IMG/VR virus record: IMGVR_UViG_3300027896_000024
Coordinates: 18,929 to 82,928 of that record
DNA: 64,000 bases
From: a virus
Direction: 5' to 3' (one strand)
Position 1 is the stretch's first letter, and each line of letters begins with the position of its first letter. The translations under genes were made by a program, and so were the position numbers. Below, piece after piece: positions 1,846-11,875 of this stretch. Under the pieces are notes generated by a model. The model ran no database searches. It was not told the origin of the DNA and saw only the letters and a program-made list of their open reading frames with translations.

Positions 1846-2490
1846 CGAGGTTAAGGATATGAGAACGAGAACAAGCAAAAGGGAAACAAACCAAAGGCCA
1901 GAGGGGACAAGAAACCCGTCCTCGACCGGCGCGGCTTTCCCGGAGGTGGGGTTCTCGTCGAGCTTGAGCAGCCATCGCACCCTAGTTTTCTAGGCGCAGG
2001 TGGCACGGCGATCGATGATCCTAATTCGGGCTTTTGAGACTCCAAGCCGGGGCGACACGGTGAACCCGGAAGGAACAAATCGGAGAAAGCGGCTAGGTCG
2101 GCCTTAAGACTTTCACCTAAAGAAATCAGGCGAGTAGGGGAAAAGAGAGACGGGGAGACCCGGAGCATCGCGAAATCCTTTTCCAGCAAAAAGCCGGGTG
2201 AATAAAGGATCCGAGCAAAGCGAATCTGAGAGACGGCCAAATGACCCAGTGAGGGGAGGTCGTAAACCAGATGAGTCGAGCGGAGTTCCTGGAAGGGGTA
2301 ACGTCCCTAATTAGAGCGTGGGTACCTGAAAAATTCTTTCCCGTTTTGGTGGTCCGGTGGAAGGGATAAAATCTAAGGTTAGCTAATTAGCAAAAGCGAT
2401 AGACTCCGACCGCAAGTGCAGAGTTCCCGGCTATGCGGACGCCAAGCGAAAGCTCGGTAGGTTTTCTCTCAAATCTCCTGTCGAGTTTTA
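1846..2490 (+). ncRNA. candidate large structured non-coding leader RNA
   Basis: ~640 nt between the promoter and twister copy 1 with no convincing + strand gene; several hairpins (GCCATCGCACCCTAG-TTTT-CTAGGCGCAGGTGGC, CGGG-GAGA-CCCG, AGC-GAAA-GCT). Confidence 0.45.
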
Positions 2491-2551
2491 GCAGAGGGCA
2501 ATCAGGTTGTGAGACCTGGTTGTAATGCACGGTTAGGTCCCAAGTCCTAAC
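2491..2551 (+). ncRNA. twister ribozyme, permuted (open at P5 position), copy 1; predicted cut 2523/2524
   Basis: GCA GAGGG; P1 CAATCAGGT/ACCTGGTTG; TAA TGC AC; P4 GTTAGG-TCCCAA GT-CCTAAC. Confidence 0.88.
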
Positions 2552-2570
2552 ATCAAAAGGAGAGAACAAC

Positions 2571-2744
2571 ATGAAAAACAAAACATGGCCAAACGAAAAA
2601 GACGTTTGCTATGATTGCGGAAGCAACATTCCAGGACATCATACTCCGTCATGCGATTTTGCGGAACCTGATGACAAGCGCGATTTACCTGAGCAGCCTG
2701 GTACTCAATGGTGGACACGTGAAGTACCTGCGGAGTTGAAATAG
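2571..2744 (+). CDS. hypothetical 57-aa protein with CxxC..HH...C
   Basis: AAGGAGAG RBS; MKNKTWPNEKDVCYDCGS...; TAG stop overlaps ribozyme copy 2 (below ORF-track cutoff). Confidence 0.7.
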   Translation: MKNKTWPNEKDVCYDCGSNIPGHHTPSCDFAEPDDKRDLPEQPGTQWWTREVPAELK

Positions 2745-2808
2745 CAGAGGGCCGGCGTAAGCCGGTAATGCACTTGCCGGGGGCACCGGCAATCGGTCCC
2801 AAGTCCGA
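2744..2808 (+). ncRNA. twister ribozyme copy 2 (with P3); cut 2766/2767
   Basis: P1 CCGGC-GTAA-GCCGG; TAATGC AC; P3 TTGCCGG/CCGGCAA; P4 TCGG-TCCCAA GT-CCGA. Confidence 0.88.
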
Positions 2809-2854
2809 ACAAGCACAGGGAACAAAACAACACAAAAAGAAAGAGAGAAATCAA

Positions 2855-3229
2855 ATGACGACTTCGAAAAATACGACCACTGCAACCGCAACTGCAACCG
2901 CTCCTGAAACCACGGCCCCGGCAGCAGCTCCAAAGGCTCCGACCCAGGCCAAACCGGTCGCCACCAAGAAAGCGGCCGTCAAGAAGGTCTTTATCTTCGT
3001 CGCGGTGGAACCGGACCTGTACCGGCTCACAATCGGATCGAACGCGGACTCGTCCAAGATTCGTAAGCTGCGTAATCACAACGCCAAGGAGATCAAGCAG
3101 GCTGTTGAGAACGCTTCGAACTTCGCGGGCCGGCCGCCCAAGCCGATCACGTTGAAGAAAGCGGATCTGAGCAAGTTCGGTCCCAAGGCCGCGCCGTTCA
3201 CGGGTTTGAAGGCTTTCCGGATTGCGTAG
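2855..3229 (+). CDS. hypothetical basic protein with Thr/Ala-rich N-terminus
   Basis: MTTSKNTT...; purine-rich RBS region after copy 2. Confidence 0.7.
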   Translation: MTTSKNTTTATATATAPETTAPAAAPKAPTQAKPVATKKAAVKKVFIFVAVEPDLYRLTIGSNADSSKIRKLRNHNAKEIKQAVENASNFAGRPPKPITLKKADLSKFGPKAAPFTGLKAFRIA

Positions 3230-3234
3230 TTCCT

Positions 3235-3291
3235 GCAGAGGGGGTCGGCTTCGGCCGACCTAATGCACATGCTGGGTCCCAAGTCCCAGCA
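3235..3291 (+). ncRNA. twister ribozyme copy 3; cut 3261/3262
   Basis: P1 GGTCGGC-TTCG-GCCGACC; TAATGC AC; P4 TGCTGGG-TCCCAA GT-CCCAGCA. Confidence 0.9.
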
Positions 3292-3311
3292 CTTCAAAAA
3301 GGAGAGACAAC

Positions 3312-3452
3312 ATGAAGAAGTTCTTTATTTGGTTATTTCTGATGTGGGCCGTACTTCACTTCGGAGCCAAGTGGGGCAAGGAAAACCAGGCGAAGGTGGA
3401 ACAGCAGATTCACGAGTCAGGAATATTCCAGGTTGCGAATATCAACAAATAG
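3312..3452 (+). CDS. 46-aa membrane-anchored peptide
   Basis: GGAGAG RBS; MKKFFIWLFLMWAVLHFGAKW hydrophobic N-terminus; TAG overlaps copy 4. Confidence 0.65.
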   Translation: MKKFFIWLFLMWAVLHFGAKWGKENQAKVEQQIHESGIFQVANINK

Positions 3453-3509
3453 CAGAGGGCCAGGGTTCACGTCCCTGGTAATGCGGTAGGTCGGTCCCAA
3501 GCCCCGACC
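3452..3509 (+). ncRNA. twister ribozyme copy 4; cut 3479/3480
   Basis: P1 CCAGGG/CCCTGG; TAATGC GGT pairs with loop GCC (compensatory); P4 GGTCGG/CCGACC. Confidence 0.85.
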
Positions 3510-3590
3510 ACAACGAATCATTCATTCCACAACACAACAAAACGGCCCAGGGCAAGGTAGGGCTGGAAAACCACAAAAGGAGAGACAACA

Positions 3591-4055
3591 ATGACCGAGA
3601 TCAAAACAAACAAAGGCACGTTTGAACTACCGGCCGGTGTTACCTTATCGGATTTAAAATATCCGTCTTGGAAAAGTTCCAAGCGGTTTGATTATTCCGA
3701 GGTTACCAAGCTGGGCCTGGATCATTCGGATTTGGAGTTAGATTTCTGGTACGTAAATTCAATTGGCTGGTGCCTTCCGACTTTACTTATTCACAGGGCC
3801 GGACGGAGATCAGCACCGGGAACAACGGACAGAACGTATGCGGTTGGTGTAAACGGAAATCATTACCGCATCGGCCATGGACCACACGTTCAGGCTGAGG
3901 TTAAGGTGTACGTCAACAAGGCAAATTTGGATCGCCTTCGAAAGTACATCGACCTTCGGAAGTCGGGTGCGGTACACGCCAACGAAACCCGGGATCGCAT
4001 TTCAACACGGCGTATGAACACTATGAATCGTCGGAGCAGCTTATTTGGATTTTAG
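3591..4055 (+). CDS. hypothetical protein
   Basis: 154-aa ORF with AGGAGAG RBS; TAG overlaps copy 5. Confidence 0.75.
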   Translation: MTEIKTNKGTFELPAGVTLSDLKYPSWKSSKRFDYSEVTKLGLDHSDLELDFWYVNSIGWCLPTLLIHRAGRRSAPGTTDRTYAVGVNGNHYRIGHGPHVQAEVKVYVNKANLDRLRKYIDLRKSGAVHANETRDRISTRRMNTMNRRSSLFGF

Positions 4056-4120
4056 CAGAGGGGGGCCGAAAGGCCCTAATGCCCACCGGATATAGGATCC
4101 GGTCAGGTCCCAAGGCCTGA
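4055..4120 (+). ncRNA. twister ribozyme copy 5 (with P3); cut 4077/4078
   Basis: P1 GGGCC-GAAA-GGCCC; TAATGC CC pairs with loop GG (compensatory); P3 ACCGGAT/ATCCGGT; P4 CAGG/CCTG. Confidence 0.9.
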
Positions 4121-4158
4121 GGGTATTACCAAAAAAGAGAGATTAAGGAGACAATACA

Positions 4159-4878
4159 ATGAGCAAAAAGCAGAATAACGGCACTGATGATGAATCATTG
4201 GTATTCGCTGGCAAGGAGCTCACGTTGGAAGATGAGATGAACATTCTCAAGGGCGGGACAGTAGGCCTGGAACAGTTCCTCGAAAACTTCCAGTTTCTGA
4301 TTTTCGTCCTGGACGAGTCGGGTTCGATGCAAGACCGGCTGCCGAGTGGAGATACTCCGAAGCGTGAGGTTCAGAAGCGGATTATCAAACGGTATGTGGA
4401 CGAGAAGATCGGACGCAAGGCCGGCACGATGAAGATCGGTGTTGTCAGCTTCGATGATGAAGCGTCCGTTTGGCTCCAGGGTTCGTCGGATCCGGTTGCA
4501 ATCAAGGCCGCGGCGGACCAGTGCAGGGGCGGTGGCGGTACGCACCTCGGGCGCGGAATTCTCAAGGGTCTTTCATTACTCCACCGGATGAAAGATTATA
4601 TTCCCCGTCTCGTTCTTACGTCGGATGGTGAGGCACATGATCCGGCTCAGGCAATCGCCGGAGCGGAAGCGGCCAAGGCCAAGGGCGTCGTAATCGACAC
4701 GGTGTACATTGGCCCTGGTGGGGGCGGTGACGTATATGCGGATAATGCGGCTGATCTTATGCGGAGAATCGCTGAGATCACCGGCGGCGTGTTCGAGCGC
4801 GTAAACAATCAGTCGGAATTCGAAACCAAGTTTTTCGATGTGATCAAGCGCCCGTTGCTTGCAACCAGTTTGAAGTAG
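4159..4878 (+). CDS. von Willebrand factor A (vWA) domain protein
   Basis: MIDAS motif LDESGSM, GGGT, LTSDG, IDTVYIG, IAEITGG. Confidence 0.85.
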   Translation: MSKKQNNGTDDESLVFAGKELTLEDEMNILKGGTVGLEQFLENFQFLIFVLDESGSMQDRLPSGDTPKREVQKRIIKRYVDEKIGRKAGTMKIGVVSFDDEASVWLQGSSDPVAIKAAADQCRGGGGTHLGRGILKGLSLLHRMKDYIPRLVLTSDGEAHDPAQAIAGAEAAKAKGVVIDTVYIGPGGGGDVYADNAADLMRRIAEITGGVFERVNNQSEFETKFFDVIKRPLLATSLK

Positions 4879-4883
4879 TCCTC

Positions 4884-4936
4884 GCAGAGGGGGGCCGGTA
4901 ACGGCCCTAATGCACGGGCCGGTCCCAAGTCCGGTC
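4884..4936 (+). ncRNA. twister ribozyme copy 6; cut 4908/4909
   Basis: P1 GGGCCG-GTAA-CGGCCC; TAATGC AC; P4 GGCCGG-TCCCAA GT-CCGGTC. Confidence 0.9.
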
Positions 4937-4969
4937 GTCATTACAAACCACAAAAAGGAGAGAACGATC

Positions 4970-5671
4970 ATGGTATATGCTGATGATTTTCCAGAGCAAC
5001 AAAAACAACAGGAAGCGCGGAAAGCGGCTATTAGGGCTCACAGGGCCGAGATGGACGCTAAGATCGAACAGTGCACGTTGGCCTTAGTCGTCGCGTTGGA
5101 AAACTATGGCCACAAGGTAGAACGGCATGGGCACAAGCAGGACGACAAAGTGATCCTCGGCGACATCTATCATATTGACGGGGTGTACTTTTGGGATCTG
5201 CAGTTCTACGAACAAGGGCTTTACGCTCCTGGTGGATATCTCAGGGGTGCCGGAAATGGTAAACTGGCATTGCATTATCAGGATCCGAATTCAGTGCTTC
5301 AAAGGCGCGTTATCATTCGTGAGAAGAAAAGCGGTTTTGATTACAACACAATCGCCGCTACGTTGATAGCCTTGGCAGCCCCGTTAATACCGGCTGCTAA
5401 GGAACGGTTGGAGCGGGAAGCGAAGCAGGCCGAGGCCAACGCCAAAGCGGAACAGATCCGGGACATGGCGAGCGCTTTACAGCAACAGTTTCGGAGCAAA
5501 ACGTTGACGAACTTGAGTATTCAATATCAGAACTGGTGCGGCAAATTTGAGGTTTCGTTCAATACGGAGACCTTGGAAGAGGCGCAAGCAATTCTGAGCC
5601 GGTTGGTTCCGAATAAAACGGAATCGCCCGACGACGCAATCGAAGAAGCGAGGCGTAGAATACACGGTTAG
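4970..5671 (+). CDS. hypothetical protein
   Basis: start MVYADD after AAGGAGAG RBS; TAG overlaps copy 7. Confidence 0.75.
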   Translation: MVYADDFPEQQKQQEARKAAIRAHRAEMDAKIEQCTLALVVALENYGHKVERHGHKQDDKVILGDIYHIDGVYFWDLQFYEQGLYAPGGYLRGAGNGKLALHYQDPNSVLQRRVIIREKKSGFDYNTIAATLIALAAPLIPAAKERLEREAKQAEANAKAEQIRDMASALQQQFRSKTLTNLSIQYQNWCGKFEVSFNTETLEEAQAILSRLVPNKTESPDDAIEEARRRIHG

Positions 5672-5745
5672 CAGAGGGGGGCGAGCTAACACAGTCGCCC
5701 TAATGCACTAGTACATTCTTTAAGTACTAATGGTCCCAAGTCCAT
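5671..5745 (+). ncRNA. twister ribozyme copy 7 (with P3); cut 5701/5702
   Basis: P1 GGGCGA/TCGCCC; TAATGC AC; P3 TAGTAC/GTACTA; P4 ATGG/CCAT. Confidence 0.87.
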
Positions 5746-5773
5746 AAACAAAAAAGAGAGAAGAGGAGATAAC

Positions 5774-6538
5774 ATGAACCCAAGGAAGCTGTTGGCACAG
5801 CTCAGGCGGGTGTATTCACAGTTTACCAAAATGGCTAAGCAGCCGATCGAGGACAGGAACAAGTTGCTCGTATCTGCGGTGGCCATAATGGATGCTGTAG
5901 TGCGCCTGGCAATTGTTCAATACAAATCGCAACTGCCTCAGAACGCGGCCAAGCTTTTCGATATCGCGGGAAAGTGCAGAGCTAGGGCGATGAGTACAAC
6001 ATTCAACGAAGAGAAGGATTTATCACTTCGGATAGCACTTCTGAAAATGGAACAAATGATTCCCATGTTAAGCCCGCCGGCGTTTCAGCTCTATATTGAC
6101 AAGTTCAATCTTAGGGCGTCGGCACATAAAGAGGGCAAGTCGGCCAAAGGTCCCAAAGCACCACGGGCACCAAGAACACCGGCGAGCGCCCAGCCTCAAA
6201 ATCAGTATGGTGTACGGCGGAAGTTTTCTCCGGTGCCTCAAATAGTACCGGTTGGTTCGCCGCTGATTATCAACATTCTATTTGCTAATCTAAAGACCCC
6301 GTTCAGGGCGTCTTCGGCAAAGGCAAAGGCATTTCGTTTCTGGTTCGAGGACTTCCGTACTAAGGAAGAGGTCGCTCAATACCTGAACCAGGTTACCAAC
6401 GGGAAGGGCAAATCGCTAGTCTGGTTACTCTGGAACAAGAGGAACGGCGGCGACGAGTCGATGCACTGGTCGTTTATTCAAAAGGGCAACAAGAGCAAGC
6501 TGGTTGTATGCGATCCGACCAAGCTTCCGAAACCATAG
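5774..6538 (+). CDS. hypothetical protein; C-terminal domain paralogous to 15377-16192
   Basis: 254 aa; TPFRASSAKAKAF...GGDESMHW. Confidence 0.75.
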   Translation: MNPRKLLAQLRRVYSQFTKMAKQPIEDRNKLLVSAVAIMDAVVRLAIVQYKSQLPQNAAKLFDIAGKCRARAMSTTFNEEKDLSLRIALLKMEQMIPMLSPPAFQLYIDKFNLRASAHKEGKSAKGPKAPRAPRTPASAQPQNQYGVRRKFSPVPQIVPVGSPLIINILFANLKTPFRASSAKAKAFRFWFEDFRTKEEVAQYLNQVTNGKGKSLVWLLWNKRNGGDESMHWSFIQKGNKSKLVVCDPTKLPKP

Positions 6539-6601
6539 CAGAGGGGCAGCAGGCCTGAGGAACCTGCTGCTAATGCACATTCCGGGTCCCAAGTCCCGGA
6601 A
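6538..6601 (+). ncRNA. twister ribozyme copy 8; cut 6571/6572
   Basis: P1 GCAGCAGG/CCTGCTGC; TAATGC AC; P4 TTCCGGG/CCCGGAA. Confidence 0.9.
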
Positions 6602-6621
6602 CACAAAAAGGAGAGAGCAAC

Positions 6622-6840
6622 ATGGCAGAGATTTTGAAGTGCGAGAAATGCGGCCAAAAGAATAGGGTCGATATATCGCGTTTAGCTCAGTCTATGTGTG
6701 CTAAGTGCGGTTGTCCTTTATTTATTCGGCCAGCACCCGGAAGAGATCTTATTGGAGATCTGGCCAACAAGCTGGAAGCGGCAGCTAAGAATGAGAGGTT
6801 CCGTAGAACGCAGGAATACATTTATAGAAGTCGTAACTAA
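6622..6840 (+). CDS. zinc-ribbon protein (TrxC N-terminus-like CxxC..QKNRV..CxxC)
   Basis: CEKCGQKNRV...CAKCG. Confidence 0.7.
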   Translation: MAEILKCEKCGQKNRVDISRLAQSMCAKCGCPLFIRPAPGRDLIGDLANKLEAAAKNERFRRTQEYIYRSRN

Positions 6841-6893
6841 GCAGAGGGGGGCCGAAAGGCCCTAATGCACGGCTTCGGTCCCAAGTCCGAAGC
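6841..6893 (+). ncRNA. twister ribozyme copy 9; cut 6863/6864
   Basis: P1 GGGCC-GAAA-GGCCC; TAATGC AC; P4 GCTTCGG/CCGAAGC. Confidence 0.9.
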
Positions 6894-6916
6894 GTCATTA
6901 CAAAAAGGGAGACAAC

Positions 6917-7390
6917 ATGGAACCAAGACAGTTCGAGGCACAATGCTACAAAACACTGGAAGAGTACGATCGTACTTATTTCGGCAGCGTAGGCAGCGTG
7001 ATCGGGATTCGCCTTACTCGGTTTGCTAGAGATTACGAAGCACTCCAGCAGTTCGAGGCAATAACGCGAAAACGATTCGGGTTGGTTATGGTGACGCTGG
7101 GTATGTACGATTCGGAGTCTCGCCTGGTGTATCTTAATTACCACGTCAGGCACCTGGTAAATAAAGGCTACTTTACCACGGAGTTGCGGGCGGTCTTATA
7201 CCATGAGTTGATTCATGCGGTCTTGTGCAATGCGCATCAGCCTATCAGGTTAGGGCTGTACCGCTGTTATTCACAAGGCGGCCACGGACCTGCTTTTCAA
7301 AAGCTCTGGAACAGTAATAATGAGCTTCGAGAGGTAAACGTGCAGCCGTTATGTTCCGCGGTTTGGGACAGAATGGAGAAGCGGCTATGA
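6917..7390 (+). CDS. SprT-like zinc metalloprotease
   Basis: LYHELIH (HExxH) plus downstream HGPAFQ. Confidence 0.7.
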   Translation: MEPRQFEAQCYKTLEEYDRTYFGSVGSVIGIRLTRFARDYEALQQFEAITRKRFGLVMVTLGMYDSESRLVYLNYHVRHLVNKGYFTTELRAVLYHELIHAVLCNAHQPIRLGLYRCYSQGGHGPAFQKLWNSNNELREVNVQPLCSAVWDRMEKRL

Positions 7391-7968
7391 ACATCCAGGC
7401 GTTTTTCGATCAGCTTAAACTCGAACTCTCATTACTTAAACACACGGTGGATGATGAGTTCGAGATGTTTGATAATAGGCCGCTTCGGTTAACGGTCGCA
7501 GGTTCCTTGGGATCAGATTCCCAGGCAATCGCATTCGGTTTCTACGGAGATCGAAAAGTGCTTCGGGGTGCTATGAGCCCCGAGGCTATTGCTTCCGCGA
7601 TCCATATGTATCTGCAAACCAGGAACGTAGGTACCGGGGCAAAACCACAACCGAACAGAGACATTCTCAATACCAAACGGCCGTACGATCAGTACAAACA
7701 GTCACAGCAACAAAGACCTCATACAAAACCGATCAAGCCTCAGGAACCTAAACGTCGAGTTTGGGCAATGGGGCCGTCACAGTTTCAGGGTACACCGCTA
7801 GACCAGTTAAGGTTGGCGGACTTCGATGGTAAGGTTCAAACAGTCACAGTCAAGGGTGAGATCAAGACGGCATCAGACCTGGTGTTGGCGGACTTGCCCG
7901 AAAAACAACAGCTTATGCTCAAGATACTTGAGCGGGCACTCAATAGGTTGAACAAACAGTTATCCTAA
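7387..7968 (+). CDS. hypothetical protein
   Basis: ATGA overlap with the upstream stop. Confidence 0.65.
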   Translation: MNIQAFFDQLKLELSLLKHTVDDEFEMFDNRPLRLTVAGSLGSDSQAIAFGFYGDRKVLRGAMSPEAIASAIHMYLQTRNVGTGAKPQPNRDILNTKRPYDQYKQSQQQRPHTKPIKPQEPKRRVWAMGPSQFQGTPLDQLRLADFDGKVQTVTVKGEIKTASDLVLADLPEKQQLMLKILERALNRLNKQLS

Positions 7969-7983
7969 AAAGGAGAGAACAAC

Positions 7984-8385
7984 ATGGCTAAGCGAGTTTT
8001 GACTTGCGGTAATGAGGATTGCAAGCAAAAGAATAACGTCGATATGGACCGCCTGAAGGCGGCCTACTGCGGGAAGTGCTCGTTTCCGATGTACATGGCC
8101 GTCGAACTCCAAGTTCGTGAGGACGAGGAGGAGGAATCGGTCGATGATCTGATTGACGAAATGGCCGGTGCGGAAGAGGACGATGAACCGGAAGAGGACG
8201 AGGAAGATGATTCGGAAGAGGAAGCCGAGGAAATCTTTCTCTGCCCGCTTTGTGGACAGACTGAGGTACCTGAGGAAGGGCGGGCCTGCTCCAAGTGCCT
8301 AGCCGCTCAGAAAAAAGCGGCCAAGGGCAAGGCAGGGGCGAAAAAACCCGCATCCAAGGGCAAGACCAAACCGAAAGTAAACTAG
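7984..8385 (+). CDS. double zinc-ribbon protein with acidic linker
   Basis: CGNEDCKQKNNV..CGKC, D/E tract, CPLC..CSKC; TAG overlaps copy 10. Confidence 0.75.
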   Translation: MAKRVLTCGNEDCKQKNNVDMDRLKAAYCGKCSFPMYMAVELQVREDEEEESVDDLIDEMAGAEEDDEPEEDEEDDSEEEAEEIFLCPLCGQTEVPEEGRACSKCLAAQKKAAKGKAGAKKPASKGKTKPKVN

Positions 8386-8443
8386 CAGAGGGGACCGGGC
8401 CAGCACGGCCGGTCTAATGCGCAGTCCCGGTCCCAAGTCCGGG
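8385..8443 (+). ncRNA. twister ribozyme copy 10; cut 8415/8416
   Basis: P1 GACCGG/CCGGTC; TAATGC GC; P4 CCCGG-TCCCAA GT-CCGGG. Confidence 0.87.
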
Positions 8444-8492
8444 GCGCATTGTTAGTACTAACATTCATTCTCACAAAAGGGAGAAAACGAAC

Positions 8493-8681
8493 ATGGCAAT
8501 CAGTGCTGAAATCAAGGGCAAGAATTTGGTAGTGACGATTCCGGTTAACGATCCGCCTGAGCCTTCCGGTTCCGGCAAGTCGTTGGTGGTTGCGTCTTCG
8601 CACGGCAATCAGGAGACGACCTGCAAGGTGAACGGGAAGAACCTGGTGATCGGCCTGAACGCTTACATCCGCAACAAGTAG
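8493..8681 (+). CDS. small hypothetical protein
   Basis: PSGSGKSLVVASSHGN..IGLNAY; good RBS. Confidence 0.75.
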   Translation: MAISAEIKGKNLVVTIPVNDPPEPSGSGKSLVVASSHGNQETTCKVNGKNLVIGLNAYIRNK

Positions 8682-8740
8682 GCAGAGGGGGGCGGGCTAG
8701 TATAGCCGCCCTAATGCACAAGCCGGTCCCAAGTTCGGCT
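8682..8740 (+). ncRNA. twister ribozyme copy 11; cut 8712/8713
   Basis: P1 GGGCGG/CCGCCC; TAATGC AC; P4 AGCCGG/TCGGCT. Confidence 0.87.
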
Positions 8741-8760
8741 ATTCAAAAAGGAGAGAACCT

Positions 8761-9027
8761 ATGGTACACGTTCCAAGGCAGTTGACTACGGAAGAGGCTA
8801 TCATCGAGGCGTACGAGCTTACCTGGGATCAAATAGCCCCAGATATTCTAGGTCGCGATGAGACCGCCAGCGTCGATCGGGACACCGTCATGGATTGCTG
8901 CGCGGATCACGTTCGTATTCACGGCGCTATGTCCAAGGAAGTAGAGGCAGCGTACAAGCTGCTATCCTGGGAAGAAAAGAAGCGGTTGCTCAGGAAGGCG
9001 TTCCCGCACAAGACGTACGGATACTAG
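8761..9027 (+). CDS. hypothetical protein
   Basis: AAGGAGAG RBS, 88 aa. Confidence 0.7.
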   Translation: MVHVPRQLTTEEAIIEAYELTWDQIAPDILGRDETASVDRDTVMDCCADHVRIHGAMSKEVEAAYKLLSWEEKKRLLRKAFPHKTYGY

Positions 9028-9037
9028 GGAGGTTTAT

Positions 9038-9238
9038 ATGGCAGAGATCTCCAGATGGGCAAACACTCAAGCTACCGCAGAGGTTGCTTGTCCCCGTTGT
9101 GGTATGCAGGCCGGTGTTGAGTGCAGAACTCCAAAGATGCGTAGGTTATTCACAATTCACACCGAACGAGGGAATGCCTATTTTGCCAAGATAGGTCGTG
9201 ACGAATGGCTTCGTAGGTACTCAATATCAAAACACTAG
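9038..9238 (+). CDS. zinc-finger protein
   Basis: CPRCGMQAGVEC...HTER; GGAGG RBS; TAG overlaps copy 12. Confidence 0.7.
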   Translation: MAEISRWANTQATAEVACPRCGMQAGVECRTPKMRRLFTIHTERGNAYFAKIGRDEWLRRYSISKH

Positions 9239-9292
9239 CAGAGGGCGGCCGGCAACGGCCGTAATGCACAGCTCGGGTCCCAAGTCCTGAGT
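9238..9292 (+). ncRNA. twister ribozyme copy 12; cut 9262/9263
   Basis: P1 CGGCCG-GCAA-CGGCCG; TAATGC AC; P4 GCTCGGG/CCTGAGT. Confidence 0.9.
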
Positions 9293-9312
9293 ATAAAAAA
9301 GGAGAGAACAAC

Positions 9313-9756
9313 ATGGATACAATCATCGAAGATAAACATTCGTTGGCACATCTTGAACAGGTCGTGCGTAAATTGTTCGAGAGGTTGGATGTTTCCGAAC
9401 TTCGTCGTGGTCCGCATCCGATACCAACAGGGATAGGCGAAATCAAGATTGACGATGAAACGCTGGACGTATTCGGCGGCCTGTGGGCGGTTGCGTGCGA
9501 GATCACAGTAACCCGAAAGTATTTGGGTGGCCGGGGCCGCAAAGCAAAAGTTCCTGGATTTGTGGTCGGCGTCGTAGTACATCATCATAATTATCCGCAT
9601 GAACCGGATGATTACGAACCTGTTGAAACGGGCCAGTTCGAGTCACCTTACAAAGCCGCAGAGGCTCTGGCATTGTTGTATTACCAAGACCGTATCAATA
9701 GTGCGATGGAGGACATCAGCATGGCAGAGGTTGCGGAGCAGTTCCACGAAGATTAG
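9313..9756 (+). CDS. hypothetical protein
   Basis: 147 aa, cassette RBS, TAG overlaps copy 13. Confidence 0.75.
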   Translation: MDTIIEDKHSLAHLEQVVRKLFERLDVSELRRGPHPIPTGIGEIKIDDETLDVFGGLWAVACEITVTRKYLGGRGRKAKVPGFVVGVVVHHHNYPHEPDDYEPVETGQFESPYKAAEALALLYYQDRINSAMEDISMAEVAEQFHED

Positions 9757-9806
9757 CAGAGGGGGGCCGCAAGGCCCTAATGCACGAGCTGGTCCCAAGT
9801 CCAGCT
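9756..9806 (+). ncRNA. twister ribozyme copy 13; cut 9778/9779
   Basis: P1 GGGCC-GCAA-GGCCC; TAATGC AC; P4 AGCTGG/CCAGCT. Confidence 0.9.
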
Positions 9807-9835
9807 AGGCAGATCACAAAAAGGAGAGAACAACG

Positions 9836-10372
9836 ATGGCTGATAAAGAGGTAGAGGCGACATATACCGAGGAGCCGTCTAAGTATCCTGTATTCGTGCA
9901 GGAGCTTATGGATCGCTTCAAGGCCGTTGAGCGCAAGCTAACGGAAAACAAGTATCAAATGGACGCAGAGTTAAAGCGTACCCAGGAGCGCCTGGAGGCC
10001 AGTTATACCAAGCAGCGGGATTTGGACGGGCAGAAGTTAATCGTTCATTTCCTGGAAGTGTTGGATAATCTGGATTGGGCATTATCACATGCTACTGAAT
10101 CGGCCGACAGCTTTCATTCGGGTGTACGTCTAGTGGCGGATCTGTTTCGGAAGAAACTCCAGCAACTAGGCGTAGTACTCGTACCGTTGAAGGACAAGCC
10201 TTACGATCCGGAATTCGCGCAAGCTATCTTTGCACAAGAGGTAGATAAGCCCGAGTTACACGGCATCGTGCTTCAAGAACACGTCACTTGCTACGCGATT
10301 GATGCGACTATCATCCGTCCTGGTCAAGTGGTCGTAGGCAAGAAGCGGGAGGTGTCTAATGGTAGCGGTTAA
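9836..10372 (+). CDS. grpE: GrpE-like nucleotide exchange factor
   Basis: long N-terminal helix, FLEVLDNLDWAL, GV..(L)QQLGV, PYDPEFAQAI, IIRPGQVVV. Confidence 0.8.
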   Translation: MADKEVEATYTEEPSKYPVFVQELMDRFKAVERKLTENKYQMDAELKRTQERLEASYTKQRDLDGQKLIVHFLEVLDNLDWALSHATESADSFHSGVRLVADLFRKKLQQLGVVLVPLKDKPYDPEFAQAIFAQEVDKPELHGIVLQEHVTCYAIDATIIRPGQVVVGKKREVSNGSG

Positions 10373-10610
10373 GTGCTGTAAGTGTTTTCGGAATACCAAC
10401 AAGTTCCGGTGTTGTTCCTGCGGTCACAGTATTTGTACTTCATGTAAAGAGCAGACTCGAAAATTACCGGTTCGCAAGTTGGTGAGTGACGAGGACTTGT
10501 TATTCCTGTTGGAAGTATTTGAACGGTCTGGCCAGTCATTATCCTATCGGGCCAAGGTGTACCGAGTAGAGGCTATGCATCGCGGTCTTATCAAGAAGGA
10601 GGCCAAGTGA
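10359..10610 (+). CDS. Cys-rich small protein
   Basis: CCKC..CCSCGHSICTSC. Confidence 0.65.
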   Translation: MVAVKCCKCFRNTNKFRCCSCGHSICTSCKEQTRKLPVRKLVSDEDLLFLLEVFERSGQSLSYRAKVYRVEAMHRGLIKKEAK

Positions 10611-10810
10611 AAAGGAAGAGGTTGATGGTCGTTGTACAACCGGTAACAAATCTCCCGGGCTTGTATACCTGGTCAATACAACGGGCTGGCCGGGTGATTG
10701 CGATATACCCGGAGACGTACAAAACAAAGGACTCGGCTATTCGTTATGCTGAGCCCTTTGCTCAGGAAATCGGAGCAACATTCGCTACCGAAAAGGAGGT
10801 ACAGGGTTAG
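10607..10810 (+). CDS. small hypothetical protein
   Basis: GTG start with GGAGG RBS; TAG overlaps copy 14. Confidence 0.65.
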   Translation: MKRKRLMVVVQPVTNLPGLYTWSIQRAGRVIAIYPETYKTKDSAIRYAEPFAQEIGATFATEKEVQG

Positions 10811-10868
10811 CAGAGGGGACCGGTCTGAGGGCCGGTCTAATGCGCATGGTCGGTCCCAAGTCCGACCA
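10810..10868 (+). ncRNA. twister ribozyme copy 14; cut 10838/10839
   Basis: P1 GACCGGTC/GGCCGGTC; TAATGC GC; P4 TGGTCGG/CCGACCA. Confidence 0.88.
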
Positions 10869-10880
10869 AGGGAGGCACCT

Positions 10881-11549
10881 ATGAGGCGTATTTCTCGTGA
10901 GGGGTGGCGCCGGCGTAAGATCGCTGAGTACTACCAACGGCGGGACGATGAACGAATACAAAAAAGGGAGGACAACATGATTACACCAGAATATGTTGAA
11001 TGGGAAAAGGCTCAGGAGCGGGCAGCTTTTGAGTCTAAGATGCGCAGGGACGAGGCTTTGGAAAAGCAGTCCCAAGTGCAGCAGAGGAAGACAATGGCGG
11101 ATACGAGCAATCAGGATTCAGCCGTGCCGGCACAGCTCAAGGACTTGATGTTGATATTCGCTGGTAATGCATATTTCACAATTCGAAACAACACAACAGG
11201 CAATCGCTTCACGTTTCGCGTATCGGTTTCAAAACCGAATCCACAATTTCCGAACCCGGTTCACTTCGTTAGTGTACTCTGCGGGCCGGATAACCGTACG
11301 AACTATGCGTATATCGGGTTCGTCAGCAAAGCACTTCAATATCGGCACGCAGTCAAGTCAATCATCACGGAACAAGCGGTATCTGTTCAAGCTTTCAAAT
11401 GGTTACTGGCTAGGGTAGCTACTAAGCAGCCCTTGCCTCCCGAAGTGCAGATCTGGCACGAGGGTCGGTGTTGCCGATGTGGCCGAATGCTAACAGTTCC
11501 TGAGTCCATTGAGCACGGCCTAGGGCCGGAATGCTACGGGAGGATATGA
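10881..11549 (+). CDS. phage protein with C-terminal DUF6011-like zinc finger (alternative start 10977)
   Basis: CCRCGRMLTVPESIEHGLGPEC. Confidence 0.7.
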   Translation: MRRISREGWRRRKIAEYYQRRDDERIQKREDNMITPEYVEWEKAQERAAFESKMRRDEALEKQSQVQQRKTMADTSNQDSAVPAQLKDLMLIFAGNAYFTIRNNTTGNRFTFRVSVSKPNPQFPNPVHFVSVLCGPDNRTNYAYIGFVSKALQYRHAVKSIITEQAVSVQAFKWLLARVATKQPLPPEVQIWHEGRCCRCGRMLTVPESIEHGLGPECYGRI

Positions 11550-11779
11550 TGCGAGTTACTCAGATGGAACGCGCTGCGATTCTCCAGATGTTTGTACTCC
11601 CGGATGGTGTATCGTATCTCGGGGAGCAACCGGATCCGGCTGGCGGGTCGATATCACTTTATCACGATGTAGTCACAGGGTCGTCATTCATGGTTCACGA
11701 AGGCGAAAACATCGAGCAGGCGGTAAACAGAATCCGAGAATCATTTTTCCCGGAGGAATTCAAGGTTTGGGAAGCATAG
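11546..11779 (+). CDS. hypothetical protein
   Basis: ATGA overlap; TAG overlaps copy 15. Confidence 0.65.
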   Translation: MMRVTQMERAAILQMFVLPDGVSYLGEQPDPAGGSISLYHDVVTGSSFMVHEGENIEQAVNRIRESFFPEEFKVWEA

Positions 11780-11875
11780 CAGAGGGGGTGGTTGCCTTTA
11801 CAAAAGTAGGCATTAAATGGTAGGGCCTGATCCTATCAGCCACCTAATGCGGCAGTCCTGGTCCCAAGTCCCAGG
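11779..11875 (+). ncRNA. twister ribozyme copy 15 (expanded P1 insert); cut 11845/11846
   Basis: P1 GGTGGTTG/CAGCCACC with branched insert; TAATGC GGC pairs with loop GTC; P4 CCTGG/CCAGG. Confidence 0.82.

Follow-up and report, generated by a model that had tools for sequence, protein, structure and literature searches.

The locus analysed here raises the question of why the stop codons of a phage operon should lie directly against self-cleaving RNAs. It forms part of a 64,000-nucleotide (nt) stretch of DNA, hereafter the window, that corresponds to bases 18929-82928 of the 82,928-base IMG/VR record IMGVR_UViG_3300027896_000024, the genome of an uncultivated freshwater phage that is rated complete by CheckV. 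Fifteen type-P5 twister ribozymes (Rfam RF02684, Twister-P5) are arrayed at positions 2490-11874, all on the + strand, and a first-pass annotation had stated that all 14 of the upstream genes end within 5 nt of a ribozyme, which was confirmed at every coordinate. Ten TAG stops (2742, 3450, 4053, 5669, 6536, 8383, 9236, 9754, 10808 and 11777) share their G with the conserved motif GCAGAGGG, two stops abut this motif (TAA at 6838 and TAG at 8679), and two lie 5 nt upstream (TAG at 3227 and TAG at 4876). Our results indicated that this flush placement is real, statistically strong and general, and that the ribozyme does not need it for catalysis. In our judgement it probably reflects a packing rule that provides a minimal, fully protected 3' untranslated region (UTR) in a self-processing operon. 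The ribozymes lie on the coding strand and divide 14 units, each of one to three genes and all in + orientation, as follows.

2490-2549, + strand: twister no. 1, the leader copy; TA precedes it and no gene ends there; predicted cut after 2523
2742-2808, + strand: twister no. 2; TAG of the 57-amino-acid gene 2571-2744 shares its G (twister 2743-2808); predicted cut after 2766
3227-3288, + strand: twister no. 3; TAG 3227-3229 of gene 2855-3229, 5-nt spacer TTCCT, twister 3234-3288; predicted cut after 3261
3450-3507, + strand: twister no. 4; TAG of the 46-amino-acid gene 3312-3452 shares its G; predicted cut after 3479
4053-4119, + strand: twister no. 5; TAG of gene 3591-4055 shares its G; 37.1 bits, extra hairpin; predicted cut after 4077
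4876-4934, + strand: twister no. 6; TAG 4876-4878 of the VWA-domain gene 4159-4878, 5-nt spacer TCCTC; predicted cut after 4908
5669-5745, + strand: twister no. 7; TAG of gene 4970-5671 shares its G; 37.5 bits, extra hairpin; predicted cut after 5701
6536-6598, + strand: twister no. 8; TAG of gene 5774-6538 shares its G; predicted cut after 6571
6838-6890, + strand: twister no. 9; TAA 6838-6840 of gene 6622-6840 abuts GCAGAGGG; predicted cut after 6863
6917-8385, + strand: block of three genes ahead of twister no. 10, with small gaps or overlaps, the last being 7984-8385
8383-8442, + strand: twister no. 10; TAG of gene 7984-8385 shares its G; predicted cut after 8415
8679-8738, + strand: twister no. 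11; TAG 8679-8681 of gene 8493-8681 abuts GCAGAGGG; predicted cut after 8712
9236-9289, + strand: twister no. 12; TAG of the zinc-finger gene 9038-9238 (block 8761-9238) shares its G; predicted cut after 9262
9754-9804, + strand: twister no. 13; TAG of gene 9313-9756 shares its G; predicted cut after 9778
9836-10810, + strand: block of overlapping genes ahead of twister no. 14, including a GrpE homologue, the last being 10607-10810
10808-10865, + strand: twister no. 14; TAG of gene 10607-10810 shares its G; predicted cut after 10838
11777-11874, + strand: twister no. 15; TAG of gene 11546-11779 (block 10881-11779) shares its G; 36.7 bits, 58-nt branched P1; predicted cut after 11845

Are these elements twisters? 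The window contains 17 occurrences of the motif GCAGAGGG, where 2.4 are expected, and 15 of these copies, at 2491-11786 on the + strand, each form the 5' end of one Twister-P5 match. Twelve of the 15 copies score 43.5-56.2 bits, above the Rfam gathering score of 37.6 bits, while the three with long insertions score 36.7-37.5 bits, within one bit below it. All 15 matches cover model positions 1-58 in cmscan, and these 15 are the only twisters in the 82.9-kb genome. Every window copy contains GCAGAGGG, TAATGC and GGTCCCAAG; the P1 sequences vary among copies and all 15 fold as hairpins, with predicted energies of -9 to -20 kcal/mol. In addition, P4 pairs are flagged as compensated in the cmscan alignments. 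Across about 200 sites from the window and other records, the T2 pseudoknot pairs are GGG/CCC (173), GAG/CTC (10) and GGA/TCC (6), and those of T1 are AC/GT (85), GC/GC (44), GC/GT (10) and CC/GG (1). Compensatory changes in both pseudoknots thus support the twister fold, and the 15 copies are predicted to cleave themselves. A search of public sequencing runs located the stretch in one DNA run, a freshwater metagenome that may be the source sample, and listed no RNA run that contains it.

The copies correspond closely to the type-P5 twister class of Roth et al. 2014, as reviewed in PMC5408937. They share with it full-length covariance-model matches, the conserved GAGGG, U/AA (the slash marking the cut) and GGUCCCAAG, the P1, P2 and P4 helices, covarying T1 and T2, and a permutation with its opening between P4 and the P2 3' strand. 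They differ in that P2 has 3 bp, model position 1 being the A of the stop codon with its partner missing, and in that no P5 helix is evident, the open P5 position being taken by the flanking genes. The ribozymes are ordinary members of a known family, and the arrangement is already known in outline.

The anatomy of a junction defines what the stop codon touches. Within GCAGAGGG, GCA supplies the 3' strand of P2 and GAGGG the L1 strand, which makes the pseudoknot T2. In the cmscan alignments the A of TAG occupies model position 1, which is normally a C paired with a G, and that G is missing here. P1 is closed by a loop, and the predicted scissile bond lies between the U beside P1 and the next A, the U-A step next to P1 being the twister cleavage site (PMC5408937). 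The predicted cut falls 22-66 nt 3' of the stop, with a median of 30 nt kept after it. In the predicted upstream product the stop is intact and is followed by 7-8 unpaired nt and the P1 hairpin; the 3' end is paired, its terminal U with the final G of GAGGG. The predicted downstream product carries AAUGC at its 5' end, followed by the P4 hairpin, an A-rich stretch with AAGGAG and the start codon. Designed readthrough into the UAA of the cleavage site was considered and rejected: this UAA is in frame with the upstream stop at only 5 of the 14 window junctions, and the pooled excess (59 of 129 sites, 46% vs. 33% expected) is mild and comes from non-independent sites.

The use of stop codons at these junctions is strongly biased. 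TAG closes 13 of the 14 ribozyme-adjacent genes vs. 26 of 90 crudely called genes elsewhere in the genome (Fisher p = 6.8e-6), and it closes one of the six array genes that have no ribozyme behind them. Stop-codon recoding was likewise rejected, there being no tRNA genes in the window and TAG ending about 29% of the genes elsewhere. The reading frames upstream of the ribozymes are preceded by strong Shine-Dalgarno sequences, and their products include matches to VWA, SprT-like, GrpE, phage zinc finger and DUF6011 families. The GrpE homologue (9836-10372) is clear (Pfam E = 6e-22), a co-chaperone gene being unusual in a phage, and the SprT-like match (6917-7390) is weak, at 24.5 bits just under the Pfam cut-off of 25.6.

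The operon is also densely packed. Array genes with no intervening ribozyme overlap by 4-14 nt or are separated by 10-15 nt, and genome-wide the gap between genes on the same strand has a median of 2 nt and is no larger than 15 nt in 66 of 103 cases. Each real gap in the operon is thus made up of a single ribozyme and a single ribosome-binding region. In the window, 12-91 nt separate the end of P4 from the start codon (the median over 147 sites, those of other phages included, is 22 nt), and at all 14 window junctions the 5' edge of the gap (-1 to 5 nt) is tighter than the 3' edge. A polycistronic transcript could start at the following element.

1812-1840, + strand: candidate sigma-70-like promoter, TTGACA and CATAAT separated by 17 nt, 11 of 12 positions matching

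Promoter-scan counts do not exceed those of shuffled sequences, so that this element is a candidate only, and no convincing terminator was found inside the array. Between this best promoter match and the first ribozyme lie about 640 nt (1847-2490) with no convincing gene.

Is the flush stop peculiar to this phage? The first-pass annotation had proposed comparing stop-to-ribozyme distances in related phages, and these distances proved to be tightly non-random both in five further arrays and across 123 independent junctions. In IMG/VR, a pattern scan with the sequence upstream of the motif left unspecified returned 115 stretches. Five of these records contain arrays of 8-20 Twister-P5 copies, with matches to no other Rfam family in the arrays, and their stops are likewise flush, in the forms TA/G (overlap), TAA then T, and TAG or TGA then C. 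Counting as a stop the end of any frame of at least 40 codons, we found that 46% of 129 non-identical IMG/VR sites have a stop within 1 nt of the motif and 61% within 5 nt, vs. 3.4% and 6.4%, respectively, at positions drawn at random from the same strands. When one genome per prokaryotic species was scanned, 25 further stretches came to light in metagenome-assembled genomes (MAGs) of many phyla, and the spacer was no longer than 1 nt in 21 of the 37 sites of that scan. When the window was left out and sites with common flanking sequence were collapsed, 123 independent junctions from phages, prophages and MAG contigs remained, with spacers of -1 (27 junctions), 0 (9), +1 (30) and +2 (11) nt; 54% were within 1 nt and 74% within 5 nt. 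The distribution is thus a sharp peak at -1 to +1 nt with no plateau.

Two further spacer classes, of 11 nt and 34-35 nt, belong mostly to a single lineage of large phages, nearly all of them from one sample, in which the context is different. These phages (78-150 kb; loci L001, L004, L005, L006, L019, L036, L060, L076, L079, L080, L093, L094 and L096) carry one twister each, which is longer, has an extra hairpin and lies 11 or 34-35 nt downstream of a short frame; this twister is followed by a conserved non-coding stretch instead of a ribosome-binding site. Dense arrays were also seen in cellular assemblies. A complete Vicinamibacterales chromosome has 16 Twister-P5 copies in 6.7 kb (G007:C1:1761135-1767796, partly covered by L148), presumably within a prophage, and a Eubacteriales MAG contig has eight copies within 3 kb. 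No close relative was recovered: megablast of the array against deposited phages gave no match, and the four viral contigs that encode a relative of the downstream helicase, at 34-35% identity, had no Rfam match at all. Type-P1 twisters (RF03160), sought as a comparator, had no match in 151 Clostridia genomes, in which the controls likewise had none.

Genes enter the ribozyme rarely or not at all. At 143 of 180 sites a long frame (at least 60 codons open) ends upstream or with the one-base overlap, and at 11 of 180 a long open frame reads into the ribozyme. Six of these 11 frames stop at the UAA of the cleavage site (L112, L120 on the reverse strand, L143, L149, L050 and L065). Such read-in frames may be chance frames in G+C-rich DNA; if the six are real genes, cleavage would take away their stop codon.

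The surveyed sites also bear on the idea that this twister subtype has a structural UA of its own ahead of GCAGAGGG, which genes have borrowed as a stop. In favour of this idea, the window has A at position -1 in 12 of the 15 copies and UA in 11 of 15, including the leader copy at 2491, where there is no gene: the 34-codon frame ending there (TAG 2489-2491) has no ATG, GTG or TTG. Elsewhere, however, TA precedes the motif in only 3 of the 35 sites that have no gene end within 12 nt, and position -1 is mostly C or T there, as it is in most sites with a stop 1-5 nt upstream. In addition, the Rfam consensus has a paired C at this position, and copies with T, C or G at -1 score equally well or better. 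We therefore give this idea almost no credence. The UA is not part of the ribozyme; in this phage the stop codon supplies the A at position 1, which takes the place of the base able to extend P2.

The junction could instead be a historical trace with no selected function, left because the unit from stop to start is copied or recombined as a module; the first-pass annotation had likewise suggested that the fixed junction might record how cassettes are captured. The copies are alike from the stop codon to the ATG, as expected of such a module, and their last sense codons are unrelated. The P1 of a copy has its nearest neighbour in its own array in 26 of 39 cases (permutation p < 0.0005), which lends slight support to capture, although this likeness may partly come from base composition. 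The TA before the leader ribozyme, which has no gene, is also in keeping with copying. Sequences resembling junction remnants, in the form of short duplications of a stop plus the motif, occur at L119:5674-5693 and L116:2789-2807; at L119:5685, TAGCAGAGGTA stands directly before GCAGAGAG. Three related arrays carry common genes in partly different order, with the junctions still flush. On the other side, no tyrosine integrase was found, PF00589 being unmatched in the 82.9-kb genome (estimated complete), and among the genes of the window array only one has a homologue in the five others. Moreover, the junction forms (TA/G, TAA+T, TAG+C, TGA+C and others) differ across lineages that have no genes in common, which argues for repeated convergence on zero spacing and not for one inherited scar. 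As an account of the flush stop, cassette copying thus seems quite improbable.

Returning to the packing rule, we propose that the arrangement follows from the economy of a message that processes itself. Wherever two genes of the operon neither overlap nor nearly touch, the gap holds a P5 twister and the next ribosome-binding region and nothing else. Its order is the stop, GCAGAGGG (the P2 3' strand plus the L1 strand), the P1 hairpin and the cut at U/AA, followed by the P2 5' strand, T1, the P4 hairpin, about 20 nt with the Shine-Dalgarno sequence, and the start codon. The polycistronic mRNA would cut itself 22-66 nt past each stop. Behind its intact stop, the upstream mRNA would keep 7-8 nt of single strand and then a stable P1 hairpin ending in a cyclic phosphate; a 5'-OH would head the downstream mRNA, followed by the P4 hairpin and a ribosome-binding site that is free. 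Cleavage in vivo and the protection of the new ends are steps that we infer. The conserved core would bar extension of the open reading frame (ORF), and any spacer would be unprotected, dispensable RNA; because the ORF is barred from the core and the spacer is dispensable, selection would drive the spacer to zero. TAG can overlap the ribozyme by one base because the first invariant base is G, which gives the tightest packing possible, and the bias toward TAG would arise because another stop would break the first P2 pair. In other phages, TAA or TGA followed by 0-1 nt takes the place of the overlap.

The looser 3' edge of the gap can be understood in the same way. An elongating ribosome can melt structure, while an initiating ribosome needs roughly 20 nt of open RNA, and this need would explain why the 3' edge is less tight. 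At the 5' edge, a terminating ribosome would thread GCAGAGGG through its channel, with P1 probably staying folded where the channel begins. When the stop occupies the A site, GCAGAGGG, 8 nt long, would roughly fill the channel, and P1 would start about 14 nt from the first base of the P site. As P1 begins near the channel entrance, it could stay folded during termination with no bare RNA in between. Since the genome is packed throughout and both edges of the gap are near their minimum, packing explains the data with no need of coupling to translation. In three other phages, homologous genes have different neighbours and flush junctions all the same, which fits this explanation.

Several points weigh against this explanation. 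It takes for granted a single transcript and in vivo cleavage, both of which are inferences in this phage, and the background statistics for stop-codon usage rest on crude gene calls. The 3' edge is looser (12-91 nt) than the 5' edge (-1 to 5 nt), and the tighter 5' edge could mean a function of its own. Furthermore, position 1 otherwise prefers C or U, and with the A of TAG there the overlap may cost an optional fourth P2 pair, a cost that hints at selection beyond neutrality. Finally, packing by itself is compatible with a link to translation.

Such a link is the substance of a further explanation, in which zero spacing was selected because the terminating ribosome controls the ribozyme. The first-pass annotation had argued that a terminating ribosome would cover the P2/L1 strand, and this part holds as far as the known footprint allows, since GCA belongs to P2 and GAGGG to L1 and the stop is 0-1 nt away. 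Before cleavage, a ribosome on the stop would hold the P2/T2 strand and block folding; after cleavage, each arriving ribosome would strip the 3+3 bp that join the products. Cleavage would thereby become irreversible, or re-ligation and circularisation would be prevented, and the fate of an mRNA would depend on translation upstream. The overlap between the footprint and the P2/T2 strand would be unavoidable, and it is physically sound that folding and termination would exclude each other while the ribosome sits there. The stop lies 7-8 nt from the base of P1, so that GCAGAGGG, judged by the known ribosome footprint, would fill the channel downstream of the A site. The greater tightness of the 5' edge at all 14 junctions, the retention of the overlap although position 1 otherwise prefers C or U, and the conservation of the layout in lineages of many phyla also agree with such control.

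However, a ribosome covers 10-12 nt, and coupling would be served equally well anywhere in a window of roughly 10 nt, which the junctions do not fill, their spacers peaking at -1 to +1 nt. In each array the leading ribozyme has an intact core although no gene stands upstream of it. Products joined by merely six bp should part unaided, and twisters fold and cut within seconds in vitro, a time comparable to the interval between ribosomes. Given the peak at zero, the intact leader ribozymes and the weak hold of six bp, translational control is not needed to explain the data, and we regard it as possible but rather unlikely. Its strongest form, in which the zero spacer is a selected device whereby the terminating ribosome unfolds P2 and T2, expels the downstream fragment, blocks re-ligation and sets the fate of the mRNA, appears doubtful to us. 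If it were true, an excised RNA whose ribozyme halves had re-paired around a gene would be opened or reset by the unfolding, and translation of its own or the upstream frame would set the fate of each gene-sized mRNA.

Two features of individual junctions lie outside the ribozyme core. The 5-nt spacers TTCCT and TCCTC (3230-3234 and 4879-4883) are pyrimidine-rich and could pair with 4-5 bases of AGGAG in the ribosome-binding site of the next gene, beyond the ribozyme; such pairing could form a short P5-like closure that cleavage would break. In three copies a GCATTA-like sequence stands just after P4, namely TCGTCATTAC, GCGTCATTAC and GGCGCATTG (4935-4947, 6891-6903 and 8443-8455). These sequences complement the UAAUGC of the cut site and could pair with the new 5' end after cleavage.

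The arrangement has precedents. In prophages, hammerhead ribozymes occur in clusters that flank single genes or short gene blocks (Perreault et al. 2011, PMC3088659), and it was proposed there that long phage transcripts are processed to gene-length mRNAs, with circular products as an alternative. Those clusters resemble the present array in having several self-cleaving ribozymes on one strand that bracket genes of varied identity, and differ from it in the ribozyme class; here there are 15 copies, one per real gap. Stop codons or overlaps are mentioned nowhere in PMC3088659, so the flush-stop rule is not described in that paper. A 2019 review (PMC6765202) notes suggestions that hammerhead and twister ribozymes process polycistronic transcripts, and calls the purpose undefined. 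According to that review, Felletti et al. 2017 placed a twister just after a coding region, where cleavage is expected to alter the stability of both flanking mRNAs as it would here, the difference being that their work used reporter constructs. The stop-codon rule was not found in the limited literature searched, and an earlier description is possible.

Protein-based processing offers a further parallel. The early polycistronic mRNA of phage T7 is cut between genes by RNase III, and its upstream products end in a stabilising hairpin. Both systems would thus cut an early phage operon between genes and leave hairpin-ended upstream products, but a host protein enzyme acts in T7, whereas in the phage array cleavage would be the work of the RNA, with a 2',3'-cyclic phosphate and a 5'-OH as the resulting ends. 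In synthetic ribozyme insulators and twister-flanked circular RNA cassettes, ribozymes at gene boundaries free the units from their sequence context; the position is the same in the phage, whose system is natural. The ends produced by twisters are substrates of the RNA ligase RtcB, and an RtcB gene was not found in the phage genome.

The role of twisters in bacteria and phages has been open since 2014 (PMC6765202), and the layout rule narrows the roles for this class to the 3' end of a translated gene. The rule is quantitative and extends over many lineages: the stop is 0-1 nt away from the P2 strand, and the start follows P4 by about 22 nt. If packing alone is at work, it is a tidy anatomical detail of a known arrangement. 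The interaction between ribosome and ribozyme is made directly testable by simple spacer mutants, and the roughly 80-nt module from stop to start is a natural design for a compact intergenic insulator.

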